A stretch of 64,000 bases of DNA from Desulfobacteraceae bacterium. GTDB taxonomy: Bacteria; Desulfobacterota; Desulfobacteria; Desulfobacterales; JAABRJ01. The stretch spans positions 11,632 to 75,631 of the forward strand of contig JAJDNY010000162.1 in assembly GCA_022340425.1 (NCBI GenBank), written 5' to 3'. Below are positions 12,433 to 41,502 of the stretch, piece after piece. Each line of letters starts with the position of its first letter. The first letter of the stretch is position 1. The translations under genes and the position numbers were made by a program. Under the pieces are notes generated by a model that was given only the letters and a program-made list of their open reading frames with translations, did not search any database and had not been told where the DNA came from.

Positions 12433-14231
12433 CGGCAACCCTCAAAGCCAGCGGCATCATCGAAACCCATCGCCACGCCCTGCAACGGCTGCAAGGCGCC
12501 CTGACGGCCTGCCCCTTGTGGTCGCCGGGGGTGGCGCTGCAAAGACAGTGCGCCGAGGCCGGCCAGATGATCGACAAGCTGGTGGCGCGCCTGGAGCGCA
12601 AGCTCGTGGTGACCCTCATCGGGCCCACCGGGTCGGGAAAATCCACCCTGCTAAACGCCCTGGCCGGCGTCGACGATTTGTCAGTCACCGGTCACCGGCG
12701 GCCCACCACGCGCCAGGCGGTGGTCTTTTGCGGCGCCCGGGACGACGCCGACCAGCTGGTGGCGCAACTGGGGGCCGAGGCCGTCAGCGTGGTCACCAGC
12801 CAGGCGGCCCAGGCACTGACGCAGTCCATCCTGATCGACACCCCGGACATGGACAGCACCGAGCAGGAAGCGCACATTCCCATCATCCGCAAGGCCCTGG
12901 GGCTATCGGACATCCTGATCTGCGTTTTCAACGCCGAAAACCCCAAGCGCCGCGACCACGTGGATTTTCTGGCGCCCTATGTCCGCATGTTCCAGGGGGA
13001 GGCCGTGATCTGCGTCATCAACCGCTGCGACCGGCTGGCGGAGGCGGAACTGCGGGAGGTGATCGTGCCGGAGTTCAGCGACTTTATCCGCAGCGCCTGG
13101 CAGCGGCCGGTGGAAAAGATCTTCTGCATATCCGCCCGCCGCCACCTCCAGGACCCGGACTGGGACCCCGGGGCGCCCCCGCGGCATGATTTCGACCAGT
13201 ACCCCAAGCTGCACGCCATGATTTTCGGCGCCTTCAACCGCCCGGGCTTCGTCGTGGATCAGCGCCTGCAAAACGCCGCGGCTCTGCGTGATTACATCGA
13301 AACCGAAATTCGGGGGGAAATTCAAAAAGACCGCCCGGCCCTGGAGGAGGCCCTCAAAAAAATGGCGGCGGCCGAAAAGGACGGCGTCGGCGCCGCCCTG
13401 ACCAGTCTGTACCGCGAAACGCCCGGACAACTGCTGGGGGTCAATGTGCGCCTCTACCAGCTGCTCGCCCACCGCTGGACCGGGCCGGTGGGCTGGTTGG
13501 TCGCGCTCTGGGCGCGGGTCCTGGTTTTCGGCACAGGGGTAGCCGCCATGCTGCGCTTGGGCAACCCGCTGCGCCAGCTGTGGGGGGCGGTGGCAACCGT
13601 CAGCCACTACCGCAAGGCCCGATCGGCCGTGGCCGACAGCGAGGCGGGCAAGGGCCTGGACCAGGCCCTACTGGGCTACCGCCTGAGCCTCCTGAAGCGC
13701 TGGCCGGAGATTGCCGAACTCCTGGTGCGCGGCCGCTTCGCACCTGAAGCGCGCGATGTCGCAGGCGTCCTGCCCGAGCCCGAGGAGCTGGCCTCAGAGC
13801 TGGGCGCCCTCTGGAACGGCGCCCTGGAGCGCGCCCTGGAAAAGGCGGCCAAAAAGCTCAGCGGCGTTTTCATCCAGGTTCTCTTCAACCTCCCCATCCT
13901 AGCCCTACTCTGCCATGTGGGCTGGATCACGGCCAGCAACTATTTTTCCGGCCACTACCTCTCCGGGGATTTTTTCCTGCACGCCTTCGTAACGCTCCTG
14001 ATCGCGCTGTTGCTGGCGTTTTTCGTTTTCCAGGTCATCACCCGCGCCACGGCCAGCCCCGAGCGCCTGGCGCAAGGCGCCTTCGAGGGGCTCCAGCAGC
14101 AGGCGACAGACTTCATGCCCCTGGGCGACACCGCTCTGGCCCGCCAGGTCCGGGCGGTCCTGGTCCTCGACAGCGCGCCCGCCGCAGCAGCTGAAGACGG
14201 CCCCGCCGAGGTTGGCTCCGCCCACCGTTGA
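12414..14231 (+). CDS. Membrane-associated P-loop GTPase, partner 2
   Basis: ATG 12414 overlaps the partner-1 stop (12430..12432) by 19 nt. G1 is GPTGSGKST, the G3-like motif is DTPDMD and G4 is NRCD. Several C-terminal TM segments are present. Confidence 0.65.
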   Translation: MANNRIAATLKASGIIETHRHALQRLQGALTACPLWSPGVALQRQCAEAGQMIDKLVARLERKLVVTLIGPTGSGKSTLLNALAGVDDLSVTGHRRPTTRQAVVFCGARDDADQLVAQLGAEAVSVVTSQAAQALTQSILIDTPDMDSTEQEAHIPIIRKALGLSDILICVFNAENPKRRDHVDFLAPYVRMFQGEAVICVINRCDRLAEAELREVIVPEFSDFIRSAWQRPVEKIFCISARRHLQDPDWDPGAPPRHDFDQYPKLHAMIFGAFNRPGFVVDQRLQNAAALRDYIETEIRGEIQKDRPALEEALKKMAAAEKDGVGAALTSLYRETPGQLLGVNVRLYQLLAHRWTGPVGWLVALWARVLVFGTGVAAMLRLGNPLRQLWGAVATVSHYRKARSAVADSEAGKGLDQALLGYRLSLLKRWPEIAELLVRGRFAPEARDVAGVLPEPEELASELGALWNGALERALEKAAKKLSGVFIQVLFNLPILALLCHVGWITASNYFSGHYLSGDFFLHAFVTLLIALLLAFFVFQVITRATASPERLAQGAFEGLQQQATDFMPLGDTALARQVRAVLVLDSAPAAAAEDGPAEVGSAHR

Positions 14232-16498: not shown

Positions 16499-16596
16499 TG
16501 GCGGAAGTGCATGGGAATCGAACCCACCCGGGACGGTTTTAACGCCCCACACCGGATTTGAAGTCCGGGAGCCCCACCAGTGAGCTGCGCACTTCC
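16499..16596 (-). tRNA. selC: tRNA-Sec (anticodon UCA)
   Basis: The reverse strand reads GGAAGTGCGCAGCTCACTGGTGGGGCTCCCGGACTTCAAATCCGGTGTGGGGCGTTAAAACCGTCCCGGGTGGGTTCGATTCCCATGCACTTCCGCCA. It has an 8-bp acceptor stem, the anticodon loop CUUCAAA, a long extra arm, a GGTTCGATTCC T-arm and an encoded CCA. Confidence 0.9.
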
Positions 16597-26200: not shown

Positions 26201-26229
26201 CGGCCCGCCCCGTGCGGCAGGAGGTTCCC

Positions 26230-29200
26230 ATGAAATGTCCCGGCTGCGCCCACGTCAATGCCCCCGATGCCCGGTTTTGCATCCAGTGCGGACAGATGCT
26301 GGGCGGCGTCTGCCCCGGCTGCGGGGCCGTCAATCCGGCCCAGGGCAGATTCTGCAGCCAGTGCGGCGCGGCGTTAACGGCCGGCCCCTTCGCCGATGCC
26401 GCGCCGCACCCGCGCGTTTGCCAGCCCGAGGAGAGACGCGCTTTACCCCGGCCCGCCGCCGGGGAGCGCAAGCACGTCACCGTGCTCTTCTCCGACATGT
26501 CCGGGTACACGGCGCTTACCCAGCGCCTGGACCCCGAGGAGGTCCGCGACCTCATGGCGCGCCTGACGCATGAGATCACCCGGGTGGTGGCCCGCTACGA
26601 GGGCTTTATCGAGAAGTTCGCAGGCGATGCCGTCATGGCGGTCTTCGGCGCCATCCAGGCCCATGAGGACGACGCGATCCGGGCCATCATCGCCGCCCGG
26701 GAGATCCACGAGCGCGTGGCGGCCTACAGCCGCAGGTACGAGGAAGAGATCGGGCAGCGGCTGGCGATGCACTCCGGGATCAACACCGGGCTCGTGGTCA
26801 CCGGCAGCGTGGACTTCGAGGCGGGCACCCACGGCATCGCCGGTGCGCCGCTCAACATCGCCTCCCGGCTGTGCGCCCTCGCCGGGCCGGGGGAGATCCT
26901 GGTGGGGGATGACACCTACCGCCACGCCCTGGGCTATTTCAATTTTCTGGCCCTGGACCCGGTGGCGGTCAAGGGCGTGAGCGTCCCGGTTCGGATCTAC
27001 CGGGTCGTATCCTTGATCGGCCGGCCCCAGAAGATCCACCGCTTCCACGGCCTGCGGGCCGATCTGATCGGCCGCAGCCCCGAGCTCACCACCTTGGCCG
27101 AGGCTTTGGACCGGGTGCGGGCCGGACACGGCCGCCTGGTGACAATCTGCGGCACCGCCGGCACCGGCAAAAGCCGCCTGGTGGAGGAATTCAGGGCCGT
27201 CGCCGGCCGCGCCAAGGTCAACTGGCGCGAGGGCCAGTGCTACCCCTATTCCCGCAACTTCACCTACTTTCCCTTCATCGATCTCTTGAACCGCACCCTG
27301 GGCATCGAGGAGGGCGACCCGGCGGAGCGTGTGCGGGCGAAGATCGAATCCGGCCTGGATTTCGTCGACCACCGGGAGGAGGTGGTGCCCTACGTCGGCC
27401 GCCTCTACAACTTCGACTACCCGCAGCTGACCAGAATCGGCCCGGAGACCTGGCGCCAGCGGCTGCAGAAGGCGATCCTGGACATCCTGACGGCCATGAG
27501 CCGGCGCGCGCCGACGATCATCTGCCTGGAGGATCTGCACTGGGCGGACCCGTCTTCGCTCGAGCTGATCCGCTTTCTCCTTTCGGACTTCCGCTACCCG
27601 GCCCTGGTGATCCTGGTCTACCGGCCCACTTTAAGCCTCTTGTCCCACCAGCAGACCGAAAACCTCGGCGAGGCTTACGTGGAGATCCGCCTGGAGGACC
27701 TATCGCCGGCGGAAACCGAGACGATGGTCGGCTCGCTTCTGAAGAGCCAGGCACTGCCCCCGGAGTTGAAGCGCTTCGTGCGCGACAAGGCCGGCGGCAA
27801 CCCCTTTTATCTTGAGGAAATCATCAACTCCCTGGTGGAATCCGGGACACTTTCGCCTGAAAAAGACGGCTGGGTGCTGCGCAAAACCATCGGCGAGGCC
27901 CGGATATCGGCCACCGTGCACGGGGTCATCGCCGCCCGGGTGGACCGCCTGGAGCCCGCGGTCAAATGCATCCTGCAGGAGGCGGCGGTGATCGGCCGCT
28001 CCTTTTCACACGACATCTTATGCCGCATCACCGATTGCGAGACCGACCTCTGGCACCACCTGGGCAGTCTGGAGACCCTTGACATCATCAAGGCCCGCAG
28101 CTTCAGGCCCTCGGTGGAATACATCTTCAAGCACGCCCTGACCCAGGAGGTGGTCTACGGGGGGCTTGTCACCGCCCGGCGCAAGGCGATCCACGAGCGG
28201 GTCGCCCGGGTCCTGGAGAAGCTCTACGCGGATCGGTTGCCCGAATCCTACGAGGCCCTGGCCTACCATTTTCAGCGCGGCACCTCCCCCGACAAGGCAG
28301 TGACCTACCTGGCAGCCTCCGGCGCCAAGAGCCTGGGGCGCTATGCCCTGGAGGAAGCCCACCGCTACTACCAGAGCGCCTACGACCGGATCGGGCAACA
28401 CTTCACTCCGCCGGAAAGCGACCGCCAAAAGATCGCGCTGATCAACCAGTGGGCGTTCGTCCACTACTACCGCGGGCGCTACGAGGAACTGCTGCAGCTT
28501 CTGAGCGACCACAGGCAGAGCGCCGATCGGCTCACCGACGACAAAAACCGCGGCATGTTTCACGCCTGGCTGGGCTGCGCCCTGTGGCACCGCGAACGGT
28601 TCCGGGAGGCCCACCAAACGCTTCTGACGGCCCTTTCCCTGGCCAAGGAAAAAGAGGACATGGCCTTCGTCGGCTATGCCAGCTGCTGGCTGGCCTGGGT
28701 CTGCAGCGAGCTGGGGCTGCTCGACGAAGCGCTGGCCCACGCCGCAAAGGCCCAGGAGATCCACCGCGCGGGGGAAAGCGACAACTTCATCTACTTCAGC
28801 TCCGTCGCTGCCACAGGCTACGCCCTCTGGCACAAGGGCGAGAAGGCGGAGACCGCGGCGACCGGCCATTCTTTGCTGCAATTTGGCCGCGAGCACGGGG
28901 ATTACCGCGCCAAGGGCATGGGCTACTGCTGTCTTGGCTGGAGCGCCCTGATGGGGGGCGACATCCCTGATGCCTGCGGGTTTTTCGAAAAAGCCGTCCT
29001 GGTCTCGGTCGACCCCTGGTATGCGATCTTCCCGAAGTTGGCCCTGGCCTACGGCCTGATGGTAAACGGGCGGGTCCACGAGGCCAAGCGCCAGATCGCC
29101 GAAGGCGAGGCCTTCTGCAAGGAGTTCGGGGCGGAGTTCGGGGGCCAGCCGGCGCGCTTTTTCAAGGGGGTGATCCTGGTGGGGGAAGGCAAAGTCGACG

Positions 29201-29610
29201 AGGGTCTCTCCCTGTTGGAGGAGTGCTGCCGCAACTGGCGCCAAAACGGCAGCAAGCTGCGCTTCGCCGCCTTCGGGGCGATGCTGGCGGGTATCTATTC
29301 AGAGCTCTACCGCAAGGCCCGCGCCGGGGGTCAGGCTGAGTTGGCGCTTTCCGCCCAAAAGCAGGCGGCGGCCTATTTTCAGGACGCCGTTGAATCGGCC
29401 GCGGAGATCGGCGCCAAGGGGACTCTTGCCCGGGCCTACCGCGCCTGGGGCCGCTTCTACCAGGAGCAGGGCGACAGCGACCAGGCCCGGGGGTGCTTTA
29501 CCGCGGCCGCGGCTTACTTCCGTTCCTGCGGGGTGGAAAACCTGGCGCAACAGGCCGAAGAAGATCAGCGGGCCCTTGAGGGAGAGCCGGGGGCGGGGCC
29601 CACGGGATAG
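26230..29610 (+). CDS. Double zinc-ribbon + class III adenylate/guanylate cyclase + AAA/STAND ATPase + TPR protein
   Basis: ATG 26230 follows AGGAGG. There are two CxxC-x(10-11)-CxxC ribbons. The cyclase core is HVTVLFSDMSGYT...EKFAGDAVMAVFG. Walker A is CGTAGTGKS (27151..27174). The C-terminal ~500 aa are TPR-like. Confidence 0.8.
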   Translation: MKCPGCAHVNAPDARFCIQCGQMLGGVCPGCGAVNPAQGRFCSQCGAALTAGPFADAAPHPRVCQPEERRALPRPAAGERKHVTVLFSDMSGYTALTQRLDPEEVRDLMARLTHEITRVVARYEGFIEKFAGDAVMAVFGAIQAHEDDAIRAIIAAREIHERVAAYSRRYEEEIGQRLAMHSGINTGLVVTGSVDFEAGTHGIAGAPLNIASRLCALAGPGEILVGDDTYRHALGYFNFLALDPVAVKGVSVPVRIYRVVSLIGRPQKIHRFHGLRADLIGRSPELTTLAEALDRVRAGHGRLVTICGTAGTGKSRLVEEFRAVAGRAKVNWREGQCYPYSRNFTYFPFIDLLNRTLGIEEGDPAERVRAKIESGLDFVDHREEVVPYVGRLYNFDYPQLTRIGPETWRQRLQKAILDILTAMSRRAPTIICLEDLHWADPSSLELIRFLLSDFRYPALVILVYRPTLSLLSHQQTENLGEAYVEIRLEDLSPAETETMVGSLLKSQALPPELKRFVRDKAGGNPFYLEEIINSLVESGTLSPEKDGWVLRKTIGEARISATVHGVIAARVDRLEPAVKCILQEAAVIGRSFSHDILCRITDCETDLWHHLGSLETLDIIKARSFRPSVEYIFKHALTQEVVYGGLVTARRKAIHERVARVLEKLYADRLPESYEALAYHFQRGTSPDKAVTYLAASGAKSLGRYALEEAHRYYQSAYDRIGQHFTPPESDRQKIALINQWAFVHYYRGRYEELLQLLSDHRQSADRLTDDKNRGMFHAWLGCALWHRERFREAHQTLLTALSLAKEKEDMAFVGYASCWLAWVCSELGLLDEALAHAAKAQEIHRAGESDNFIYFSSVAATGYALWHKGEKAETAATGHSLLQFGREHGDYRAKGMGYCCLGWSALMGGDIPDACGFFEKAVLVSVDPWYAIFPKLALAYGLMVNGRVHEAKRQIAEGEAFCKEFGAEFGGQPARFFKGVILVGEGKVDEGLSLLEECCRNWRQNGSKLRFAAFGAMLAGIYSELYRKARAGGQAELALSAQKQAAAYFQDAVESAAEIGAKGTLARAYRAWGRFYQEQGDSDQARGCFTAAAAYFRSCGVENLAQQAEEDQRALEGEPGAGPTG

Positions 29611-29838
29611 TGTCGGTGGGTTGTAGGGTTATTCCCTGAAGCTGCCGTTCACCGTCGCAGCACCCGTTGGGATCGGCGCCGTTTGCCTTTCCGTCCCATG
29701 CCCCCGGAGAGCATCAGCACGACGGACATCTTCGTCGCCTGCCGACCGGCAGGGGACGGCTGACGGGGTGTGGTGGGAGAGCTGCTACGGTGGGTCCACC
29801 AGCTTCCCCGCTGCCTTGCCCGCACGTTTGAACCGGTT

Positions 29839-30369
29839 TTATCGATTACCGGGTAGCTTCAATCTTGGGGGCGATGGGGATGATGCGGGTTTGTTGGCCT
29901 GCAGGTCCCATCCCGCCTGGACGTTTCCGCCGCCAGTGCCGTCTGCATGTTTCTGTTTGACGTAGGTCTGCTCAATCTTGCCGTAGGTAAAAGAGACCGT
30001 CTCGGTGGGGTCCCTGCCGCCGTCCCCGCTGACGGTAACACCGCTGACGGTAACTTCGCTCATCTTGTATTCCATGAATTTCAGCCTGTCTCCGCCGGCC
30101 CGGCAGAGTTCCAGAACGACCTCCTTGATGTGCTCCCCCTTGGCGCATGCCACGAAAAGCAGGGGCGTTGCGGCATCCAGGGGCTTCACGATGGTAAGAT
30201 CCGCAAAATCCGCCCGCCGGCTCGACCCACCTCCGGAGCCAGCCTGGAATGCCCTGGCCTGCTGGTTGCACCCCCAAGAAAAAGAGAGGACCGCGATCCA
30301 CTCCCGATGCCTGTCATCGGTGCTTTCACCTTCGATCCCATCGATTCTCAAAAACACATTCGCCGGCAT
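29839..30369 (-). CDS. hcp: Hcp1-family tube protein (T6SS Hcp / phage tail-tube fold), orphan
   Basis: ATG 30369 follows AGGAGG. MPANVFLRIDGIEGESTDDRHREWIAVLSFSWG...TPLLFVACAKGEHI...GWDLQANK tracks Hcp1 sequences along the whole length. A 17-aa Pro/Ser-rich tail follows. Confidence 0.8.
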   Translation of the reverse strand: MPANVFLRIDGIEGESTDDRHREWIAVLSFSWGCNQQARAFQAGSGGGSSRRADFADLTIVKPLDAATPLLFVACAKGEHIKEVVLELCRAGGDRLKFMEYKMSEVTVSGVTVSGDGGRDPTETVSFTYGKIEQTYVKQKHADGTGGGNVQAGWDLQANKPASSPSPPRLKLPGNR

Positions 30370-30481
30370 GGAGGCCTCCTCTGTTTTTTGGGGATTGGGC
30401 TCGAGATTCGGGTCCGCGCGGCGCCTGAAACGCGCTTCGTTTCCTGCCGGGGGCGGCAACGACGAAAACGGTGTGCGTGAA

Positions 30482-30820
30482 TCACGGCGCATTTTCAGCC
30501 AGGATGCCGTCACCTTCGCCGATGGGCTCCTCGCCCGTCATGAGGTGAAACATATTGGGGTTCTGCTCATACCAGCCAAACTTTATCGGTTTTTCGTTGC
30601 GCAAGAGATCCACCATCGTTGCCAGTTGCTGATAGTCCATGTGCCCGTAGAAGCGCTGACCGAAGGTCGTAGGCGCCGACGCATTGGGAATTGGACCGTC
30701 TTTGTGGAATTTTAGCAAGGCATAAAACCCATCGCCCATCAGTTGAACACCGCCGTAGTAGTCTCCCTGACCGCCCACCGACACCTTGTAGCTGGTGATT
30801 TCATACCATTTCCACGCCAT
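30482..30820 (-). CDS. Hypothetical 112-aa protein (W/Y-rich, no Cys, no recognisable motif)
   Basis: ATG follows AGGAGG. It is co-oriented between the giant gene and hcp. Confidence 0.55.
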   Translation of the reverse strand: MAWKWYEITSYKVSVGGQGDYYGGVQLMGDGFYALLKFHKDGPIPNASAPTTFGQRFYGHMDYQQLATMVDLLRNEKPIKFGWYEQNPNMFHLMTGEEPIGEGDGILAENAP

Positions 30821-31005
30821 GGGACACCTCCTTTATGATGGGATGTTGGTTGCCGTTCCAGCCCCGCCCTTTGCGGCGCATTCACGCCCCTTCCCCTGGT
30901 CCAGACCGGGTTCGGTTCCGGCAATATCGGTGAAGGGAAAACAAGCGCTTTCCGGTTCACATGCACCGTCCGCGTGCAGCGCGACAGGACAGGTTGGGCC
31001 GGCTT

Positions 31006-34000
31006 TCAGATCGCGTTTCGAATCATCGTCAAGGCCTCCTCGATCCTGGCATTGGGTGCCTCGTAGACTTCCAGGATGAAATCCAGGTGCTCCCCGATGG
31101 AGGCCATCTGCCGGGGGCTGGTGCCCCGCAGGCCGGCATCCCGGTACTTTTCCACGATGGCCTTGGCGTCCTCTTCCATCTTTTGGGCTGCCGCATTCGG
31201 GTTGGCCAGGAGCAGGACCAGCAGGCAATCCGCTTCGGCCACGGCACCCCAGAAATCGGGTTTTTCTTCATAGCGCTTGCGGGCGATGTCGATGGTTTGG
31301 CGGCATTCGGCTACCAATTCCGTCCTCCAGGTCGCCGCACGGGATTTGCGGATCCGCTCCAGAAGTACCCTGGCCAGGGCATAATTGGTGAAGGCGTAAG
31401 GGTCCTCGCGGTCCAGGTCATAGGCGCCGCGGTAAGTGTTCATCATGCTTTCAAGGGCCTTTTGCCTGTCTTCACGGGTTTCGAGAATATAGACCTGGCG
31501 TTTGAAGGCCCCGCCCAGGAGGTTCAGCCGCTCGATGCTCTTGCCGGTTTGCACCAGACGCTCCAGGGTGTCCAGCGCCTGGCCGACCTCTTCCAAAAGT
31601 TTCCGGTGCCTTTTTTCACGTTCCTCGCCGGCCTTCAGCCGTCGCAGATCCTGCCACGCCGCAGCGGCTGCACGCACCTTGAAATTGGCGGCCTGCTCCA
31701 CGGCCCGCATGGGGCAGTCGCCCCGGTCGGCCTTGATGGCCTTCTCCAGCCAATCCGCCGCCTTGCGGTAGGCACCGGTTTCGCCCCAGGCAAAACCCAG
31801 GGCGGCGGCCACATCGGCGCGCTTTGGCCATTTCTCGCGGTGGGATTCCGGGATCCGTTTGATGTATTTTCCGATCTGATCCCCCATGGCGGCGAGCGAC
31901 GATCCAACGGGGTCTTCGGCGCGCATTTGCATCCGGATCCACTGGGTGTGGTTGTCCAGGTCGGCAATCAGTTCGCGGGGGGTGAAATAGGCCCTTTTCT
32001 CCTTTTTCGTCTCCGGGGAGCCGTCTCCGTGCAGCCGGAACGCGGGGTCGCCGTAGCACTGATATGCGCCCCAGGTGTTGACGTTGGGAAAGCGCAGATG
32101 GATTTCCTGGCGCGCCGCCCTGACGGCCTCGCCGAAGGCCTCCCCGGAGAGCAGGCGGTGATAAAAGGTTTCCGCAAAGGCCTCGGCAGCGCCGTCATCC
32201 ACGGCCCAGCCGGCTGCCACCACCGCCTTGACCCCCATGTCGATGAACTGCATGGCCAAGTTGGCCGCCAGCAGGCCGTAGGCGACCTGGGACGGTGGGC
32301 CGGTCTTGCCCAGGTGGCAGCAATTGACGAAGACCAGTTCCGGCACCCAGCGCATCTGTTCCACATCCCCCGGCGTCAGGATGGTGTTCTTGCCGATGAC
32401 CATGCCGGAAATGCGCTTCGGGGCCTTTCCGACGTCCCTGCCTGACAGGCCCTTTGGGGCTTTCTCGACCTCTTCAAAATTCCCTTCGCTCACGGGGTCG
32501 TCGATCTCGAATGCGTGCACCCCGTGGCCGGCCAGATGCAGGATCCGCCAGGCGTCCTTGTGGAGCCCGGAGAGGATGGCGTCGGTTCGCTCGTCGATGC
32601 AGCCGACGGCTCGGAACCCGTTGGCGTTCAGCATGGCCAGCACTTTCTGGGCCTCGCTGCGCGCACCGGGCAGGTCGCCGAAGGCGTTCCAGCCCTCCAG
32701 GTCGGGGTTGCCGATCACCAGTGCGGTGGGGTCCACGGCGTGTGCCGGGTGGGGCCGGAATTTGGGGGTCTTGCGCTGACGGATCAGCCCCGAGGTCACC
32801 GCCGGCGGGCGTCCCGAATGGCTCCAGCGATCCTCCAGCAGTTCCCACGGGAAACGGGCGGACTCGTCATCCAGCAGCAATACCAGATCGTCCTGTTTGG
32901 GGGCCTGTTCCTTGAGTCGATTGGGCAGAAGCATCTCGAAGAGGGTCTTGGCCACCTCGGGATTGGCGCTGGCGGATCGCGAGGCCTGCAGGATGAAGCG
33001 ATCGGCCAGGCGCAACTGGCCGGTGGCAAGGGTTTCCTCGGCCCTGGCGCGGTTTGTGGTGGCAACGAAGCGCAGCAGATCGCTTTCTTTTTCACGGACG
33101 ATTTCCAGCCGCTGCCACCACCCCTCGGCCTCGCCGTATCGGATTCGGCGCCGCCCGCCCTGCCCCGCTTCGACCACCCGCGCGGGCCAGTCCAGCGCCA
33201 GGTTCAATTCGCCATCAGCAAGAGCCACTTCCAAGGCTTCGGCGGCGGTGATGGCGACATCTTCGAACAAGTCCAGAAATTCGATCCGATCGATCACCAC
33301 GCGGTCCTCCATGCGGGCATCGACCAGTTTGCGGTTGACCGCTACGGCCCCGCGCAGAATGGCGCAAACGGAATCCCGGATGCTCATGCCGCCGGCGCCC
33401 GTGGCCACCAGGAGGGAGGTGATCCTGACCGAGCGGGACCCCCCCATGGGCCCGAAGCGTTCATCCGGCCACTGCGAAACCTTCAGGGCATAGTCCAGCA
33501 GGGCGTCGTGCACGCAGGACGTGAGAAGGTTTGGTGAGATCTCGCCCACCTGCCCCAGCCCGACGACGATGGCGCCCCCCGGCTTGGCATCTTTTTTCCG
33601 GTTGAAGAACAGGGCGTGGGTGCCCAGCCGCCCGGGATAGATGCCCAGATCGCGCCGCTGGGTAAGCATCTTGTCCAGCCGGCAGTTCAAGGCCTCCTCC
33701 GCGCTGACGATGGTGTCCCCCCAGTAATGGCCCACCAGGACCGGGTGGGAGGCGTAGGCCAAATCACCATGCCGGACGCTGACCGTGATGGCGGGCACCC
33801 CCCTGCCTGCCGCGGCCGGGTCGAAAGGCCGGCTGGGGCCGAAGCCGAAGCTCCGCAGGCCCTCCTCGTCGGGAATGCCGTCGCTGGGGGGCACGCTGGG
33901 CATGCTAAAAAGGCCTTCCGGCCGCCGCCCCGCGCGAACCGCCAGCGGCGGCACCTGTGACAGGCGGCTGGTGGCCCCCGTCATCAGCAGCTCGAGATAC

Positions 34001-36537
34001 CCGGGAAATGCCCGTTTTTTGGCACACAGCTCGTCGTGGGCCGTGTCCTCCAGATACCAGACCGGCACATTGCCGATGGCGCCGGAGGCCCAGGTCACGG
34101 TGCCGTCGCCTTCCGAGGTGCCCTTGAAGTCCAGCCGTTTTCGTCCGGCCAGGCGGGGCTCCTCGTAGGGGACCAGCTCATAATCGGCCACCGTGGCCCT
34201 CTGGGAGCCCGCCACGTAAACGCTGAGCTTGGGGTCGGGAACGGTTTTGCCCAGGGCATCCCAGGTGGTTCTGGCCTTTGCCAGAACCGTTTCCCTGGCT
34301 GGTTTCCAGTGCGCATTCAATTCATCTTTCAATCCCCGCCACAGGCCCGGTTGGCTGAAATCCGGATCCCCCGCAGCGAAGGGCAGCAGTTCCAGGAGAC
34401 CGGGGAACTCCCGGACGATATTGATGATCGCGTCCATGTTGTTTTTCAGGTCCAGCAGGGCGAGCTTGGCCTGGGTGGGGTTGAAACCGGTCAACCAGCG
34501 CATGGCCTCGTAGGAGCCGTGGTTGGGGGTGCCCAGCATCATGAAGCGGCTGTTGGGCAGCGCCGCAATCCGCTGCCAGAGTTCGGCGCCGCGGCCGCCG
34601 TCGCCCATCATGGCGCGCACCACGAGCCCCCCCATGGAGTGGGCGATGATGTGCACCGGCTGCTTCATGCGCTCGGCCTGGGGCAGCCAGTCTGCCAATC
34701 GGTCGGCCAGTTTTTGGGCCGCATCGCGAACCGAGTCGCGCCAGTTGTAGGGGAATATCTCCACGCGGTGGCTGCGCGCCAAAAACTCCAGCAGGGGACC
34801 GTAGAACTGGTCCAGCAGATCGGTGGGATCGATCTGGGTTTGGGGTGCCTTGAGCCGTGCCAGCCCCCCCCACATCAACGCCCAGTAGTTCAGCCAGACC
34901 GGTTCGCCGTCCACGCTCAAGGCGCTGCCCATGGTCCCCGGCAGCACCACCGCCAGGGGCCTCGGCGTGCCGCTCGCCCGGCTGCGGCGCACGGCCTCGC
35001 GCCAGCGCGGCTCCTCGTGCTTGGCTTTCTCGATCGGTTGGAAACCGCCGTCGCCGGCATCGACACGGGTGAGGCCCGAGACCAGCCAGTTGATGCTTTT
35101 TTTGTTTTCGAAGTAGTTGAAATGGCACACCGCGGCGCCCTGGTCGAACTGAAAGCGGGCACCTTTTTCCGGGCGCCGGATACCGCCGAACATGGAACCG
35201 GTGTTGACCACCAGGTCATGCTCGGCGCCGTAGAACCAGTCGGTGGCCAACAACTTGATCTGCCCCCAGAGGGTTTCGCCCTCGATATCCCCGGAGATCA
35301 CCGAGAGATCGGCCCCCGTTTTCAGGTGCGGGTGGTGCAGCAACCGGGTGAGGGCCGAGCCCGGCATCATCGCCTCCAGACCCGGCAGAGTCCGGGGGTC
35401 GGTGCGTTCTTTCACCACCGCCAGCAGAAAATCCACCGCGTCCCCGAAAAACCCCTTGCCGCTGATGAAGTCCAGCACCGACAACCACCGGTCCAGCCGC
35501 CCCGAAGCCAGGGTCGTGCCGCGCGCCGGACAGGCCACCCGGACGAAGCGGGTCACCTGGAACTTTTTGAGATCCAGAAGGTCCCGCAACGCTTCCAGCA
35601 GGCTGCGGTCCTTCACATAGGCCTCGTCTCTGGCCTCCTTGGATTTGGAATCCAGGGGCTTCAAGCCAAGCTGCCGGGCCATGGTGCGGTCGGATTGGAA
35701 GAGTTCCGCATAGTCGCTTTTGAGGGGATCGTTTTGCGTGTCGCGCTGGCCAAGGCAGAGCAGCTCTCCCACCAGCCCGCCCCGGGAGTGGCTGACCAGG
35801 TGAAGCTGCGCACCCTCCGGCAGGAGCTTCGCCAGGATCTTCGCCAGTTCCAGTGCGTTTTCGATGGGGCTTTGGGTCAGCGAGCGGTGTTCGAAGGCAA
35901 AAACGCGCTCACCGTATGTCTCCCCCAGGACCTTGCGGGCCTGCTCCCCCTGGGCGTTTTGAGCTTCCCACAGCTTGCCGAAACTCCCCCGGGTGCTGGA
36001 GGCGGTGCCGTGGAGAAACACCAGGATCGGCCTCTGGCCGTCGCCAATGGGGTTTTCGGTACTTACCGGCAGAAGGGAAAAGTCCCCCGTCATCTGGCAG
36101 CGGTAGAGCCCGGGGGTGTTGCCGCCAAGCTGCTTGGCCTCGAACTTGTGGCTCAGGCCGTGGGCGGTTTTGCCGGCCAGATCGATGCCGAAAAAATCCA
36201 ACACCCGGATGCCCAGCTTCAACCAACCGCGTTCGCCCCGCTGCCGGATGCGGCTGGGCGCCCGTAGGGCGATCTCCCAGGCAGGCTCGCCGCCGCGGCC
36301 AAGAACCCGGGTGCCGTGCTCGGCGACGAGGTCGTCCGCCCGTGTCCACAGGACGAAGCCGTTGTCGAGCTCCACCCGGACCACTTCATCCGCCTGAACC
36401 ACCATTTCGGCGGCCCCGGCTTCCCGCAAGCCCCGGGGCAGCAGCCGCCGATTGGAGGAAATGGAGACCTCCCGGGTGACGGGACTTTCAGTGGCGCCTT
36501 CCAGGCCGGCAACATGAAATGATTTGGCTGTGGTCAT
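31006..36537 (-). CDS. Giant multidomain protein: two alpha/beta-hydrolase (lipase/esterase-like) modules + CHAT (caspase-fold) protease + TPR-like C-terminal region
   Basis: I prefer ATG 36537 (AGGAG upstream) to the track TTG at 36570. In track numbering: VSHSRGG with Ser262 (35785..35787), HDLVVN and VCHF; IIAHSMGG with Ser645 (34636..34638), EGDGTV and TAHDEL; CHAT HLAGHG with His1349 (32524..32526) and FVNCCHLG with Cys1418 (32317..32319). There is no signal peptide. Confidence 0.8.
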   Translation of the reverse strand: MTTAKSFHVAGLEGATESPVTREVSISSNRRLLPRGLREAGAAEMVVQADEVVRVELDNGFVLWTRADDLVAEHGTRVLGRGGEPAWEIALRAPSRIRQRGERGWLKLGIRVLDFFGIDLAGKTAHGLSHKFEAKQLGGNTPGLYRCQMTGDFSLLPVSTENPIGDGQRPILVFLHGTASSTRGSFGKLWEAQNAQGEQARKVLGETYGERVFAFEHRSLTQSPIENALELAKILAKLLPEGAQLHLVSHSRGGLVGELLCLGQRDTQNDPLKSDYAELFQSDRTMARQLGLKPLDSKSKEARDEAYVKDRSLLEALRDLLDLKKFQVTRFVRVACPARGTTLASGRLDRWLSVLDFISGKGFFGDAVDFLLAVVKERTDPRTLPGLEAMMPGSALTRLLHHPHLKTGADLSVISGDIEGETLWGQIKLLATDWFYGAEHDLVVNTGSMFGGIRRPEKGARFQFDQGAAVCHFNYFENKKSINWLVSGLTRVDAGDGGFQPIEKAKHEEPRWREAVRRSRASGTPRPLAVVLPGTMGSALSVDGEPVWLNYWALMWGGLARLKAPQTQIDPTDLLDQFYGPLLEFLARSHRVEIFPYNWRDSVRDAAQKLADRLADWLPQAERMKQPVHIIAHSMGGLVVRAMMGDGGRGAELWQRIAALPNSRFMMLGTPNHGSYEAMRWLTGFNPTQAKLALLDLKNNMDAIINIVREFPGLLELLPFAAGDPDFSQPGLWRGLKDELNAHWKPARETVLAKARTTWDALGKTVPDPKLSVYVAGSQRATVADYELVPYEEPRLAGRKRLDFKGTSEGDGTVTWASGAIGNVPVWYLEDTAHDELCAKKRAFPGYLELLMTGATSRLSQVPPLAVRAGRRPEGLFSMPSVPPSDGIPDEEGLRSFGFGPSRPFDPAAAGRGVPAITVSVRHGDLAYASHPVLVGHYWGDTIVSAEEALNCRLDKMLTQRRDLGIYPGRLGTHALFFNRKKDAKPGGAIVVGLGQVGEISPNLLTSCVHDALLDYALKVSQWPDERFGPMGGSRSVRITSLLVATGAGGMSIRDSVCAILRGAVAVNRKLVDARMEDRVVIDRIEFLDLFEDVAITAAEALEVALADGELNLALDWPARVVEAGQGGRRRIRYGEAEGWWQRLEIVREKESDLLRFVATTNRARAEETLATGQLRLADRFILQASRSASANPEVAKTLFEMLLPNRLKEQAPKQDDLVLLLDDESARFPWELLEDRWSHSGRPPAVTSGLIRQRKTPKFRPHPAHAVDPTALVIGNPDLEGWNAFGDLPGARSEAQKVLAMLNANGFRAVGCIDERTDAILSGLHKDAWRILHLAGHGVHAFEIDDPVSEGNFEEVEKAPKGLSGRDVGKAPKRISGMVIGKNTILTPGDVEQMRWVPELVFVNCCHLGKTGPPSQVAYGLLAANLAMQFIDMGVKAVVAAGWAVDDGAAEAFAETFYHRLLSGEAFGEAVRAARQEIHLRFPNVNTWGAYQCYGDPAFRLHGDGSPETKKEKRAYFTPRELIADLDNHTQWIRMQMRAEDPVGSSLAAMGDQIGKYIKRIPESHREKWPKRADVAAALGFAWGETGAYRKAADWLEKAIKADRGDCPMRAVEQAANFKVRAAAAAWQDLRRLKAGEEREKRHRKLLEEVGQALDTLERLVQTGKSIERLNLLGGAFKRQVYILETREDRQKALESMMNTYRGAYDLDREDPYAFTNYALARVLLERIRKSRAATWRTELVAECRQTIDIARKRYEEKPDFWGAVAEADCLLVLLLANPNAAAQKMEEDAKAIVEKYRDAGLRGTSPRQMASIGEHLDFILEVYEAPNARIEEALTMIRNAI

Positions 36538-36652
36538 GGCGCACGCTCCTGTTTTTTCATGGGTTTTCAAGAGGGATACCCGACCCGTGCCGGCCGGGAG
36601 GCCTTCCGCCCCGCCGGCGGCATAAAGACATTGGGGGCGGGATCATCGATGG

Positions 36653-38938
36653 CTAAATCACCTTTTGAGCCGTCCATCCGAACGGATGGTTGGACCACCA
36701 GGTGATCCCCGAGATGCGCGACAGTGTCCAGGTATGCACATAGCCCACGAATCTCTGATTATTGGAGGCGGAGAAAGCAATTCTTATCTCGACCTTGTAA
36801 TCGGTGCGCTTGGATCCGGCTCCCAACTGGTTGGGATCGAAACCACCCAACGTCCCCGAAAAGGGGTAGCTCTTGTTATCACTGCCGACGTAAGTCCCCG
36901 AAATGCTCCAAAGCGGCGCTGCATAGGGCGCGTTTGTCACCACGCGATAGTTCCAGATCCGGGTGACTTTCAGGGTTCCCCGCCAGCCGTCGTGGTCCAT
37001 GGACCAGTCCCCTCTCAGCCACTCGGCATTGCTCGCGACATCAGCGGTCGGATCCCCGAACAGGTTGTACATCACGGTGTTGTCCAAGTGGGCGCTGGAG
37101 GTCCCGTGGTTGAGCACCATCTTGGTCTTGGCATAGCGGATAATGGCGGCCGGTGTCTGACATTTGCCGGTCATCACGGCATCGAACATGTACTTGGCGA
37201 AATCGTTGTTGGGGTACGTCCAGGAGTTGCGCGATGAAGCGAAAACCGAAACCGCCTTGCGATTGCGGATGAATGATTCCGTGATCGTCTCCAGGCTGTT
37301 GTCATCCACCCAGCCGTTTTGGCAGCAGACACTCAAGACAAACGGAGGGTGCGCGCCATTGGTGAGGGCGGCAACATCGGTGCCGTTGAGACCGTTGCTG
37401 GAAGACCACGCGGTCTTCGATCCGTGACCACGGTAGAGGGCGATCACAACGCCGCTGTTCATGGTCGCCACGACATCGCTCTTGGAGGTGTTCTTGGCGT
37501 AACGTTTGATGGCGGCGTAACGTTTGTTAATGTTGTTGTAAATTTGGTCACAGGTGTTTTCGTATGTGGCGGATTGGTATGCGCAGAGCATGACCCTGTT
37601 TTGCCAGTCGCCCCAGTCGCCCTTTCTATATCCCCCGTAGCGGACGAGGTGCTCGCAGACGCTTTTCAGTTGGGCGGCGTTGGATGTCGGAATGCGGGAA
37701 ACCGTCAGTTCAGGGGCCAGATCTCCGGAGAGGTCGGCGTAAAAATGATCCGAGGCGTAGGTATTCCCGCCCCGGTTGTAGATGTGGATGGGGATGACGT
37801 CGGTGTCCCCCGCCAACACCACAAAACGCGGGGGCACCCGCCAGTTGGCCGTTGCCCAGGCAATGAACGCCTTGATGGACCCCTTCAAACTGGTGCTCGG
37901 AAACTCCCGCTGAATGTCATCGGTCAGCGCCACCTTGGCGTAGTATGGCCACCCCGTCTTTGCCGTCAGCAGCGGTTCGACCGCGGTTTCGAGTGCCCGG
38001 GTCGTTACGATCACGTACTCTGCTATGAGGCCGGCCACCTTCAGCTTGGGAAGCGGAAGTATCGGCACGCCCACAGGCAGCGCGACTGTGGCGAGTGGCG
38101 CGGCAGCTATGGCCGTTAGGGTTCCGGTCGGGTCGGAAACCTCGTCTTCGGTCTCCTCGAGAAGAGAGATCCCCCGGCGTCTGGCGGATGCGGGATCCGC
38201 TTCAGCCTCCAGCTCTTCGATGAACTCCCGGTCCAGCCCCTGGAAATCCTCCACCCGCGAAGAATAGTCCGTCTGTTCGTCCAGCAGGTCCAACCCCAGG
38301 ATCAGGTCCGCTTCCGGCATTTCACGGGGCTTTCGCCCCGGCTCCCGGTCGGCCCCGGGCGGGGTTTGATACGTTACTTCAAGAACCAGCGACTGGACAA
38401 TCTCCATTTTCCGTGACACCGGCCGGTACTGGCCCAAATAGATCAGGATGTGGGCTACTTTCACCCCCGCTATGGTCTTGAGGCCCAGAAAGTCGAAGTC
38501 GCGACCCGGATAAGGGTCGTCCGACTCGTAGATCGCCGGGTCGGGTTCATAGACCTCGCGAAACTCCTCCTCCGTGAATTGCTTGGGTGCCGGTGCTACC
38601 CGCAATTCATGGTCGATGGTGATGGATGATTTCTCGGCCACACGCACCGCGACATCCTCCACGTCCATGGGGACCGCCACGAAGATACCGGCCTTGGGTA
38701 CGGCGGGCGCACCCTCGGTTTCGACCTGGGTAGTATCGGGGATTTCAATTTGCTGAAATTCCGCCACAGCCCCTTCCCAGGCGCCTGATACGGAATATCG
38801 AACGGTTACGGTTGTTTTCTCGCCCGCATCGCGCATGTCCCGGGTGACCATCTGTTTGGCGGACTTGCTGACCTCAACTTTGGGGGGCGCATCGCTTTCG
38901 GCTGCGTCCTGAAAGCCGATCCATTTCTTTTCGCTCAT
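36653..38938 (-). CDS. Peptidase C25 (gingipain-like) family cysteine protease, apparently cytoplasmic
   Basis: ATG follows AGGAGG. VLAGDTDVIPIH...YASDHFYADL, YRGHGS with His505 (37424..37426) and LSVCCQNGW with Cys539 (37322..37324). The layout is an N-terminal propeptide-like region, an acidic linker and an unassigned ~120-aa C-terminal beta-rich domain. The N-terminus is hydrophilic. Confidence 0.75.
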   Translation of the reverse strand: MSEKKWIGFQDAAESDAPPKVEVSKSAKQMVTRDMRDAGEKTTVTVRYSVSGAWEGAVAEFQQIEIPDTTQVETEGAPAVPKAGIFVAVPMDVEDVAVRVAEKSSITIDHELRVAPAPKQFTEEEFREVYEPDPAIYESDDPYPGRDFDFLGLKTIAGVKVAHILIYLGQYRPVSRKMEIVQSLVLEVTYQTPPGADREPGRKPREMPEADLILGLDLLDEQTDYSSRVEDFQGLDREFIEELEAEADPASARRRGISLLEETEDEVSDPTGTLTAIAAAPLATVALPVGVPILPLPKLKVAGLIAEYVIVTTRALETAVEPLLTAKTGWPYYAKVALTDDIQREFPSTSLKGSIKAFIAWATANWRVPPRFVVLAGDTDVIPIHIYNRGGNTYASDHFYADLSGDLAPELTVSRIPTSNAAQLKSVCEHLVRYGGYRKGDWGDWQNRVMLCAYQSATYENTCDQIYNNINKRYAAIKRYAKNTSKSDVVATMNSGVVIALYRGHGSKTAWSSSNGLNGTDVAALTNGAHPPFVLSVCCQNGWVDDNSLETITESFIRNRKAVSVFASSRNSWTYPNNDFAKYMFDAVMTGKCQTPAAIIRYAKTKMVLNHGTSSAHLDNTVMYNLFGDPTADVASNAEWLRGDWSMDHDGWRGTLKVTRIWNYRVVTNAPYAAPLWSISGTYVGSDNKSYPFSGTLGGFDPNQLGAGSKRTDYKVEIRIAFSASNNQRFVGYVHTWTLSRISGITWWSNHPFGWTAQKVI

Positions 38939-39206
38939 GGTGTTACCCTCCTTTCCAATTGGACTTTTGGGGAACCGTCAAACGCGACTTGCTTGGATAT
39001 GGGCCACCACCTCCTTTCTCTCGTTTGGCCCACCCGCCTGACGTCATCGCTTGGAATTGCGAGCAGATAACGTGCGGGGGCCGCTTGCGCTGTTAAGCAC
39101 AAGTATTCAGAGCAGAGTTTTTTTGTTTGAGCCGAATTGAAAGGCTGACGCTGTCGGAATTCTATTTATACGGCCGGTTTTTGTCCGGCCCGATTTTCGG
39201 ATAGAT

Positions 39207-39696: not shown

Positions 39697-41502
39697 TCAG
39701 ACGTCTTTGAAGTCGGCCCCCTTTATGATGACGCCGATTTGCTCGGCCTTCTGGCTGAAGTCCTCCAGCAGCCGGTTCAATGGGATCTGCTGGTCTTCGC
39801 GGTACATCAGAACCAGGGTCGACAGCTTGCATTTCTGGAGTTCGGCGTGCTCCAGGCGCAAGCCCATCTGGCGCGCGAGGGGCGCGATCTCCTCCAGCGC
39901 CTGCCCGACGCTGGGGTATCTGTTCCCGGGGTCGCGGGCACAGGCCCTCATGATGAAGTTTCGCAAAGGGGCCGGCAGGTCCGGCACGAAGTCGGCCGGG
40001 TCGGGGATGTCGCGCTCGACGATGTGGTCCATGACCGCCAGCGGGTCCTCGTCGTCGAAGGGCCGGCGGCCGCTCACCATTTCGAAGGCGGTCAGGCCCA
40101 GGGAGAAGATGTCGCTGCGCTGGTCCACCGGCAGGCACTCCACCTGCTCGGGGGACATGTAGAAGGGGGTGCCGGTGAGCGGGTTTTCGGACCCGCACGA
40201 ACAGGCCAGGCCGAAATCGAGAATCTTGACCTGGCCGTCCGGGAGGATGAAGATGTTGCCCGGCTTGATGTCCTGGTGGACGATGGCCTTTTCGTGGGCG
40301 AAACCGATTCCGCGGCAGATCTGGACCAGGACTTCCAGCGCGTCGCGCACGGGCAGCCGGCCGACCGCATCCAGCAGCTCCCGCAGGGTCCTTCCCTCCA
40401 GGTGCTCCATGATGATGAAGACGGTGCGAAAGCGCTCCTCGATGTCGAAGACCTTGACGATGTTCTCATGGTTGAGGTTGGCGATGGTCTGGGCTTCCCG
40501 GCGAAAGTTGGTCAGAAACTCCGGGTTAAGGGCCAGGTCGTGACGCAGCATCTTGATGGCCACCGGGCGGTTGAGGTCCCCGTGATAGCCGGTGTAGACC
40601 ACCGCGAAGGCGCCCCGGCCCAGGATGGCGGTGATGAGGTATTTACCGATCCGCCGGTCGGCGGTCAGCTTGCGGGAGGCGAAGCGCTCGGCAACGATCT
40701 CGGTCAGAAAGGTGGCCACCTCCGGGTCGGCCTGGAGCATCTCTTCGAAAACATCCCTGGGAACTCGCCACAGCTCAAGATCGGTCACCGCCTCCACGTG
40801 CGCGCTGCGGGGCTCGCCGGTCAGAAGGGCCATCTCGCCGACAAACTCCCGCTCCTTGACCAGGCCCACGACGTGGCGCTCACCCTGCTTTTCCAGAACC
40901 ACCCGGCAGGTCCCGGTGTGAACGAAGAAACACGCATCGCCCTCCTCCCCCTGGGTGATGAAGGTCTCCTCGGCCTTTACCGGTTGGTGGCGGATAATGT
41001 TCAGCAGCGGGCAGACCGCGTCGCGATGAATGGCCCTTAAAAAAGGCACCGTCCGGAAGAACTCGTAGTCCGAGGGGAAAGGGCCGGGTTTGGGGGCGTC
41101 GGCGGGGGCTGCGGGCAGTTTGAAATCGGCTGCGGCGGCCGTGCAGCCCACCAGGTGGTAGGCCGCCTTTTTCGGGTCCGGCCTGACCCAGCGCACCTGG
41201 CAATCGAAGCACCCCCAGCGCTTGCCGGGGAAGCCGAAGACGAAGAGGTGAAAGTGCTGCCCCGGCGGGATTTCCCGATTGGTCCAGAGGAGAAGGCCGT
41301 CCGGGCTGCCGTCATGGACATCGACATAGAAAGGCCGCTCCCCGCGGCGCCACGGCGGCGGAGAAGCACCCGTCCCGTCCACAGGCCTGAACAGGGCGAC
41401 GCGCGGCGGGTTCAACGCCTGGCGCGGCGAGTTTCGCCGATTGGGGGCAGCCGGCGGCGCGGGTTTTCCGTCGGCGCCGGTTTTCGCATGGGGCTGATGC
41501 AT
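39697..41502 (-). CDS. Ser/Thr protein kinase with cyclic-nucleotide-binding domain and N-terminal PilZ-like region
   Basis: The cNMP-binding core is FVGEMALLTGEPRSAHVEAV. The kinase motifs are GRGAFAVVY, HQDIKPGNIF, DFGLA and SPE. The N-terminal RRNSPR...DGSPDG resembles PilZ RxxxR/DxSxxG, but the spacing is atypical. Confidence 0.8.
   Translation of the reverse strand: MHQPHAKTGADGKPAPPAAPNRRNSPRQALNPPRVALFRPVDGTGASPPPWRRGERPFYVDVHDGSPDGLLLWTNREIPPGQHFHLFVFGFPGKRWGCFDCQVRWVRPDPKKAAYHLVGCTAAAADFKLPAAPADAPKPGPFPSDYEFFRTVPFLRAIHRDAVCPLLNIIRHQPVKAEETFITQGEEGDACFFVHTGTCRVVLEKQGERHVVGLVKEREFVGEMALLTGEPRSAHVEAVTDLELWRVPRDVFEEMLQADPEVATFLTEIVAERFASRKLTADRRIGKYLITAILGRGAFAVVYTGYHGDLNRPVAIKMLRHDLALNPEFLTNFRREAQTIANLNHENIVKVFDIEERFRTVFIIMEHLEGRTLRELLDAVGRLPVRDALEVLVQICRGIGFAHEKAIVHQDIKPGNIFILPDGQVKILDFGLACSCGSENPLTGTPFYMSPEQVECLPVDQRSDIFSLGLTAFEMVSGRRPFDDEDPLAVMDHIVERDIPDPADFVPDLPAPLRNFIMRACARDPGNRYPSVGQALEEIAPLARQMGLRLEHAELQKCKLSTLVLMYREDQQIPLNRLLEDFSQKAEQIGVIIKGADFKDV

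Follow-up and report, generated by a model that had tools for sequence, protein, structure and literature searches.

T6SS clusters commonly make use of orphan hcp genes encoded at a distance, and the orphan or auxiliary T6SS-i hcp genes of Vibrio cholerae (hcp1/hcp2), Pseudomonas fluorescens MFE01, Pantoea ananatis and Salmonella are the closest described counterparts of the gene considered here. Recent papers report T6SS auxiliary genes in hotspots that also hold defence systems. Hcp can also carry cargo, of known sizes between 10 and 44 kDa (PMC8262886), or be itself an effector, and a large screen for such specialised Hcp effectors demanded an extension of 120 residues or more beyond the Hcp domain (PMC11148199). 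We analysed an hcp (tssD) gene in a 64-kb stretch of Desulfobacteraceae DNA (the window), directly behind genes for an 1854-aa protein (the giant) and a 112-aa protein (p112). The gene (29839..30369, minus strand; stop codon 29839–29841) encodes 176 aa including a 14-aa tail. We consider it probable, at roughly 0.6, that this orphan paralogue still makes a functional Hcp, most probably for a T6SS encoded elsewhere, and that it resides in a conflict-gene hotspot.

The hcp ORF starts with the ATG at 30369 and has the N-terminus MPANVFLRIDGIEGES. Residues 1–162 (29884..30369, minus strand) make up a canonical Hcp core that ends in ...GWDLQANKPA, as judged from the ends of homologues and from PDB alignments. 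An RBS, GAGGAGG, can be read 6 nt upstream of the ATG (30375..30381, minus strand); it is kept across four orthologues (window, L001, L007 and L010), and a similar one, AAAGGAGG, lies upstream of the T6SS-embedded hcp in L090 and L004. A 224-aa GTG-initiated ORF (29839–30513) was rejected as the hcp gene because it overlaps the end of p112, homologues begin at MPAN, and it is the ATG at 30369 that has the RBS in front of it.

The protein covered the full T6SS_HCP model (PF05638; 1–129 of 129, E=7e-42; 143.2 bits, cut-off 23.5) and scored 80.7 bits with the NCBIfam model for TssD (TIGR03344; cut-off 58.9). A PDB sequence search returned 7fcf (E=3.5e-51) and P. aeruginosa Hcp1 (1y12, E=1.3e-28), with alignments spanning residues 2–160 of the window Hcp. 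The AlphaFold2 monomer model, built with 19 homologues, had a mean pLDDT of 84.2 and a pTM of 0.78, and the top 50 matches of this model in a Foldseek search of the PDB comprised only Hcp proteins and Hcp1 fusion constructs; 7fcf superposed with a TMt of 0.90–0.92 and an rmsd of 1.4 Å. In addition, all 28 columns that are invariant in the family alignment are kept. These results indicate that the ORF is a genuine Hcp/TssD with a predicted full Hcp fold. The first-pass annotation, made from the letters alone, had already named the protein an Hcp and had proposed structure prediction as a check on that call; the family, PDB and fold matches agree with it, and the prediction recovered the Hcp fold.

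A homologue search placed the window Hcp in a tight clade with P0001–P0006, whose members are 77–99% mutually identical, after which identity drops to 72% or less. Wherever the context of a clade member was readable (L001–L003, L007, L134, L010, L096 and L089), the order was always giant, 112-aa gene, Hcp. The clade is a narrow one of the Desulfobacterales. Its nearest relatives outside are P0007 and P0009 (72% identical) and P0016 (65%); their genes, like those of more distant relatives, are flanked by TssC and TssE in full TssA-TssB-TssC-Hcp-TssE-TssF-TssG-ClpV clusters, and the G+C content of two such clusters, 64–66%, is the same as that of the window. Similarity between the orphan locus and the T6SS clusters begins about 25 nt before the start codon, around the RBS, and stops at the stop codon. 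The position of the relatives inside canonical clusters, together with a similarity bounded by RBS and stop codon, marks the orphan as a recent offshoot of a canonical tube gene. The gene was probably duplicated or moved recently out of a canonical Desulfobacterales T6SS-i cluster, in a transfer of little beyond the coding sequence and its RBS. Its new place was a variable slot that follows the stand-alone 112-aa gene and the lineage-specific giant with its lipase, CHAT and TPR-S domains.

No T6SS core gene was found in the 64-kb window by tblastn with 12 T6SS proteins of the closest T6SS cluster, and Pfam scans of its other large ORFs gave only housekeeping or unrelated proteins (RecA, AlaRS, S1, IMPDH, DapB, PlsB-like and others). 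The two earlier observations that the window holds no T6SS core gene, and that a real Hcp is encoded here outside any T6SS locus, are thus borne out. The same absence of core genes (TssA-M, ClpV, VgrG) was seen in six loci of the orphan clade. Unlike typical auxiliary T6SS modules, the orphan hcp has no VgrG, PAAR, effector-immunity pair or adaptor gene beside it. Separately, an Rfam scan of the window returned tRNA-Sec only.

A T6SS contig (L097) comes from the same metagenome as one orphan locus (L096, 94% identical), and was considered as a T6SS from the same genome as the orphan hcp. However, L097 and two loci from among its TssC matches, L132 and L133, have a G+C content of 48–50% against 63–64%, and a tetranucleotide correlation of 0.3–0.46 against 0.96 within the window; they therefore belong to a different organism from the carrier of the orphan hcp, and L097 was rejected. 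Among the 120 matches listed for the L097 TssC, none was close to the GC-rich T6SS clusters.

The C-terminal tail (29842..29883, minus strand) consists of 14 codons, SSPSPPRLKLPGNR, and sits where T6SS-embedded and tail-less orphan homologues, which are 161–166 aa long, end in ...NKP[T/V]. This tail or a close variant of it was seen only in the window, P0001, P0002, P0003, L096 and L010. A DNA alignment of four orthologous loci revealed its origin. At the canonical end L007 reads AAA CCC ACC TAA; in the window, L001 and L010 this stop is replaced by sense codons, with a 9-nt indel, and the frame continues to a downstream TAA. The downstream TAA is common to all four loci, and in L007 it is kept as non-coding DNA. 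Outgroups terminate at the canonical end, and the tail therefore results from a derived loss of the stop codon within one subclade, through which former 3' untranslated sequence came to be translated. Among the three tail-bearing loci of the alignment, codon changes in the tail comprise three synonymous and three non-synonymous ones. The tail had no family match in Pfam, and its pLDDT of 51–61 in the AlphaFold2 model predicts disorder.

At 14 residues the tail is far too short for an effector domain, and it is not one; the test applied for a specialised Hcp effector (Hcp-ET) was a C-terminal extension of at least 120 aa with a toxin fold (PMC11148199). Nor does a cognate immunity gene lie directly downstream of hcp, where the next gene is a convergent cyclase-STAND gene. 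The tail had earlier been put at 17 aa and taken as a sign that this Hcp could itself carry an effector. The extension is real, but the letters quoted for it number 16 and the residues past the canonical ...NKP[T/V] only 14, and a read-through of a lost stop, confined to one subclade, predicted to be disordered and below the 120 aa of the screen (PMC11148199), speaks against an effector carrier. The Pro/Ser-rich tail is a by-product of the lost stop, disordered in the model and probably tolerated rather than functional.

At least nine clade members (77–99% identity) have an uninterrupted hcp ORF, free of frameshifts and premature stops. For five orphan hcp orthologues, Nei-Gojobori dN/dS was 0.22–0.39, compared with 0.22–0.32 for the C-terminal half of the giant and about 0.1 for p112. 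T6SS-embedded Hcps gave 0.05–0.14, although their dS is much larger and partly saturated, which makes the contrast with the orphans only indicative. The orphan clade is 61–69% identical to the outgroup (P0015, P0016 and P0018) and the embedded sister group 69–77%; the orphan branch is therefore the longer one. Ten columns discriminate orphan from embedded Hcps, three of them by a Lys-to-Arg change, and orphan Hcps have 9–11 Lys and 7–9 Arg against 13–16 Lys and 3 Arg in embedded ones, including those from equally GC-rich DNA. Judged from these comparisons, the orphan hcp is maintained by purifying selection under relaxed or altered constraint.

A gene under relaxed constraint could be a passenger, that is, a duplicated hcp that has no remaining role and drifts in a variable slot, not yet inactivated. 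The toleration of the stop loss and of the 14-aa extension would agree with this, as would the lack of hcp in one close relative (JBAPYE01, below) and of a promoter-like site upstream in a scan of 29500–31200. However, a drifting relic is hard to reconcile with at least nine clade members free of frameshifts and premature stops across about 20% amino-acid divergence, with a dN/dS of about 0.3, which is well below 1 and equal to that of the 1854-aa neighbour, or with the conservation of the RBS and of 28 out of 28 invariant columns. We therefore regard a passenger as unlikely.

On the strand of hcp, and upstream of it, lie p112 (30482..30820, minus strand, 112 aa), a member of a conserved unannotated stand-alone family and a neighbour of Hcp, and the giant (31006..36570, minus strand, 1854 aa), in which Pfam identifies DUF7379 and LCAT-like alpha/beta-hydrolase domains, a CHAT protease and TPR-S. 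The gaps in this row are 185 and 112 bp. Further upstream are a gingipain-like Peptidase C25 (36653..38938, minus strand, 761 aa; PF01364, E=5e-59), whose N-terminus, MSEKKWIGFQDAAESD, bears by eye no likeness to a signal peptide, and, as the upstream flank, a cNMP-binding Ser/Thr protein kinase recognized by Pfam (39697..41502, minus strand, 601 aa). On the other side hcp converges, as had been noted before, on the 3' end of a STAND-type gene for a protein with zinc-ribbon, adenylate-guanylate cyclase, AAA_16 and TPR domains by Pfam (26212..29610, plus strand, 1132 aa); the stop of the cyclase gene is at 29610, and a 228-bp gap separates the two. The giant has orthologues that are 86–98% identical in L001, L007, L010, L040 and L096, and matched neither PADLOC nor, by sequence, the PDB. 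None of the PADLOC-DB v2 families matched Hcp, p112, the giant or C25; the only matches were to the flanking cyclase (a PycC-like domain) and kinase (a PD-T4-6-like domain).

Comparison of sister loci shows how much of this arrangement varies. The C25 gene is present only in the window and L096 and missing from three of the five related loci (L001, L007 and L010). In L001 the stretch 36570–39205 of the window is cleanly missing, a 2.6-kb indel that removes C25; L007 also lacks the gene, its alignment to the window ending further out, at 39682; and L010 has in its place a pYEATS-TIR protein together with ORFs of 253 and 142 aa. Between kinase and giant there is thus C25 (window, L096), pYEATS-TIR (L010) or nothing (L001, L007), and C25 is variable cargo rather than a conserved operon member. 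The kinase itself is syntenic in L001, L007 and L096 and persists as a remnant in L010. Downstream of Hcp, the cyclase-STAND gene is found in L096, L001, L007 and probably L134, and is replaced in L010 and L023; the downstream flank is a gene with an FGE-sulfatase domain in L010 and a patatin-like gene in JBAPYE01. We also considered a joint transfer of giant, p112 and Hcp to new surroundings in L010, and rejected this, as the kinase-side flank is kept there and only the inserted cargo and the downstream flank differ. Taken together, these differences mark the region as a hotspot with exchangeable conflict-gene cargo, with Hcp in one exchangeable position.

Giant, p112 and Hcp follow one another in this order in six related loci, on one strand and with short gaps. 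The first-pass annotation had described hcp as the last gene of a protease/lipase operon. The gene order is as it stated; the operon is not upheld, given gaps of 185 and 112 bp and the lack of C25 in three of five loci. Indeed, the 2.6-kb indel of C25 and the absence of Hcp from L040/L023 mean that C25, giant, p112 and Hcp are not co-inherited as an operon. The scan of 29500–31200 gave no promoter-like site and a single terminator-like match, on the wrong strand and within shuffle expectation. With no promoter- or terminator-like site between the genes, hcp may be co-transcribed with the giant and p112; and because hcp is kept right after these two genes in the six loci, a functional tie is conceivable as well.

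We looked for p112 in other settings. It has no match in Pfam, NCBIfam, PADLOC or the PDB, yet 216 homologues were found, and the best 120 of the 216 are 67–91% identical and come from several phyla; an alignment of 27 homologues from several phyla had a mean column identity of 78%. In a scan of p112 contexts in species-representative genomes (79 loci), Hcp or giant occurred within 10 kb only in Desulfobacterales loci, and in none of the 75 loci outside this order. The 27 of these p112 loci that passed a threshold of at least 60% identity (61–81%) were likewise without Hcp or giant; they belong to Chloroflexota, Bacteroidota, Cyanobacteria, Alpha- and Gammaproteobacteria, Actinomycetota, Myxococcota and Balneolota. 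No neighbour family recurred in an all-against-all comparison of ORFs within 3.5 kb of p112, the neighbours being heterogeneous. Without Hcp, giant or a recurrent neighbour elsewhere, p112 is therefore a stand-alone gene and not a T6SS cargo. T6SS is not known in Cyanobacteria, Chloroflexota or Actinomycetota. The earlier proposal that Hcp could bind the 112-aa protein finds no support here for a cargo role, the family being widespread and none of the 27 loci having Hcp or giant within 10 kb.

The converse case, a giant without Hcp, was found in the MAG JBAPYE01 (L040/L023). It has the giant and p112 (91% identical), and Hcp is absent from this locus: homology to the window ends about 65 nt past the p112 stop, and the next gene, in convergent orientation, encodes a patatin-like membrane protein. 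This locus speaks against an obligate link between Hcp and the giant.

A more far-reaching reading is that the Hcp ring has been exapted as a T6SS-independent part of the intracellular conflict system of the giant, in which it could serve as scaffold or chaperone for a proteolytic fragment, as a substrate of CHAT or C25, or as a tail-tube-like ligand or decoy for a TPR-S sensor. If true, this would give a T6SS-independent job to a bona fide T6SS-i Hcp. The constancy of the gene order in six loci, with giant, p112 and Hcp always on one strand, even with a different downstream flank in L010, would fit such a role, and so would the lack of any T6SS gene nearby (in the 64-kb window), the accelerated evolution, the Lys-to-Arg shift, which is absent from equally GC-rich T6SS-embedded Hcps, and the company of conflict-type domains (CHAT, TPR-S and, in L010, pYEATS-TIR). 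Hcp has the same fold as the phage tail-tube protein. A precedent is offered by the defence protein DSR2, which is reported to sense a phage tail-tube protein (PMC11850899).

However, the association is limited to one narrow clade in which Hcps are at least 77% identical, the close relative JBAPYE01 keeps giant and p112 without Hcp, p112 is independent of Hcp everywhere else, and C25 comes and goes as an indel. At about 200 kDa, the giant is far above the known range of Hcp cargo, 10–44 kDa (PMC8262886). None of the three proteins has a PADLOC model, and Hcp goes unmentioned in two broad surveys of conflict systems of this type. Our literature search found no paper that ties Hcp to conflict systems of the CHAT type; a single co-mention was of CHAT-domain proteins in a T6SS variable region of Bacteroides, and nothing usable was found on TPR-S, pYEATS or DUF7379. 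Exaptation is accordingly improbable in our view, and slightly more so in its specific form, in which the ring was taken from a T6SS into an intracellular lipase-CHAT-TPR-S immune or suicide module as ligand or decoy, or as a protease-controlled scaffold. On the genomes compared, mechanistic links of Hcp to the protease, the lipase or the 112-aa protein are not supported.

Finally, a specialised or cargo-carrying Hcp, with the tail as a functional effector or adaptor peptide or with p112 as dedicated T6SS cargo, is very improbable: four tail-bearing lineages (83–94% overall identity) retain most of the tail sequence, and p112, encoded immediately upstream, is at 12.7 kDa lumen-sized and within the known cargo range (PMC8262886), but the tail measures 14 aa against the at least 120 aa that define Hcp effectors (PMC11148199), is absent in three orphan lineages and is predicted to be disordered, and p112 is present in Cyanobacteria, Chloroflexota and Actinomycetota, never near Hcp, and has no recurrent candidate immunity gene.

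We thus favour a working orphan paralogue. Hcp would still be made, would most likely form hexameric rings, and would supply a T6SS encoded at another site of the genome with an auxiliary, or possibly the sole, tube or chaperone subunit. Its place beside the giant would reflect residence in a recombination-prone conflict-gene hotspot and not a shared mechanism. We temper this interpretation because the orphan clade evolves faster and shows the Lys-to-Arg shift, which would also fit a changed or relaxed role. At face value, the gene adds to the orphan hcp paralogues that are common among bacteria with a T6SS, and its tail is an evolutionary accident. The analysis is also corrective, in that an apparent protease/lipase/Hcp operon resolves into a variable hotspot, whose slots hold different conflict genes across sister genomes. 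Should the genomes that carry it have no T6SS, its conserved position after a giant with CHAT and TPR-S domains would argue for a new role of Hcp that does not depend on secretion. Two by-products may prove more interesting than Hcp itself: the highly conserved, unannotated 112-aa family and the uncharacterised 1854-aa protein that combines two hydrolase domains with CHAT and TPR-S.

How does the locus compare with known systems? The giant resembles the TPR-CHAT of type III-E CRISPR and the CHAT systems described by Aravind and colleagues in having CHAT, TPR-S and putative lipid-hydrolase effector domains, and the likeness extends to a sister genome, L010, with its pYEATS-TIR gene in the adjacent slot. 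None of these conflict systems is, however, known to include Hcp (two surveys), PADLOC gives no match, and the link to Hcp here is positional only. With Hcp-ET proteins the window Hcp shares a core followed by extra C-terminal residues, but these are 14 disordered stop-loss residues and not a toxin domain of at least 120 aa, and no immunity gene lies downstream. It is much closer to the T6SS-embedded Hcps of Desulfococcus-like Desulfobacterales (P0007 and P0009), to which it is 72% identical and which it matches in fold and, through residue 162, in length; it differs from them in ten discriminating substitutions (three Lys-to-Arg), a longer branch and a different genomic context. The same fold is shared with the Hcp of 7fcf, at about 46–48% identity over the structural alignment. 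Orphan and auxiliary hcp genes such as those of V. cholerae, P. fluorescens MFE01, P. ananatis and Salmonella differ from the window hcp in its lack of vgrG, PAAR and an effector-immunity pair, and in its position behind a lipase-CHAT-TPR-S giant in Desulfobacterales. It nevertheless resembles them in its core of canonical length, its full Pfam and TIGRFAM signature, its location away from T6SS core genes and its close relationship to cluster-embedded hcp.

The 112-aa protein p112 (window 30482-30820, (-) strand), encoded between the gene for the 1854-aa giant protein and the orphan hcp, belongs to an unannotated family; sequence searches of Pfam, NCBIfam and the PDB returned no match. A profile search retrieved 185 clusters at 50% identity. 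Family members (loci L010-L088) share 61-91% identity in Desulfobacterota, Chloroflexota, Bacteroidota, Cyanobacteria, Alpha- and Gammaproteobacteria and Actinomycetota, and their length is always ~105-120 aa. They are stand-alone proteins, and their gene neighbours are unrelated from locus to locus. This combination of high conservation with a patchy distribution suggests that the family is under strong constraint and has spread horizontally. The AF2 model of p112 (pLDDT 81) predicts a beta-rich fold with one helix; a Foldseek search of the model against the PDB found no match.

We compared synonymous divergence of p112 and its neighbours in the window and in the related loci L001, L007 and L010. 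The dS of p112 was 0.45-0.65, in contrast to 0.19-0.30 for the adjacent Hcp and giant in the same genome pairs; the value is thus about twice that of the neighbours, genome pair by genome pair. This excess hints at a mutational or recombination history, or a constraint on codon usage, different from that of Hcp and the giant.

The orphan Hcp (window 29839-30369, (-) strand) and its clade contain 9-11 Lys and 7-9 Arg, in contrast to 13-16 Lys and 3 Arg in homologues outside the clade (P0007-P0018). Base composition alone does not explain this Lys-to-Arg shift, because it is absent from T6SS-embedded Hcps of equally GC-rich genomes. In a T6SS cluster of Desulfobacterales type from a low-GC organism (L132 4797-5968, GCA_030620525.1), TssC is followed by an inserted gene, which looks ParB-like by eye, and not by hcp-tssE; the contig ends at this point. 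Thus, in at least one T6SS cluster, hcp no longer occupies its customary position.

In the giant (window 31006-36570, (-) strand), DUF7379 and LCAT-like alpha/beta-hydrolase domains occur together with CHAT and TPR-S. PADLOC has no model for this protein and the PDB no sequence relative, and six Desulfobacterales loci keep it at 86-98%. We consider it a candidate for an uncharacterised intracellular sensor protein armed with a protease and a lipase. The slot between the giant and the cNMP-binding kinase (window 36570-39205; L010 724-2784) differs among loci. The window and L096 carry here a 2.6-kb segment that includes a C25 (gingipain-like) peptidase, the N-terminus of which does not resemble a signal peptide; L010 has a 253-aa ORF, a pYEATS-TIR protein and a 142-aa ORF in this position, and in L001 and L007 the slot is empty. 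The slot looks like a hotspot for conflict or defence gene cargo. In MAG JBAPYE01 (L040 and L023), no Hcp follows the giant and p112. From a breakpoint ~65 nt past the p112 stop, a convergent gene comes next, whose 1137-aa product is a multi-pass membrane protein that carries a patatin-like phospholipase domain.

The only RNA-family match to Rfam in the whole window was a tRNA-Sec gene (16499-16596, (-) strand; 76.5 bits; ARAGORN anticodon TCA). Two adjoining large GTPases of 720 and 613 aa (10270-14231, (+) strand), with weak dynamin-family matches at their N-termini, are possibly a bacterial dynamin-like pair.

A zinc-ribbon/nucleotide-cyclase/AAA_16/TPR protein (window 26212-29610, (+) strand) and the cNMP-binding Ser/Thr kinase (window 39697-41502, (-) strand) flank the locus on either side, and both are syntenic in several relatives. 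The two could be a cyclic-nucleotide signalling pair; the cyclase domain of the former resembles the PycC models of Pycsar.
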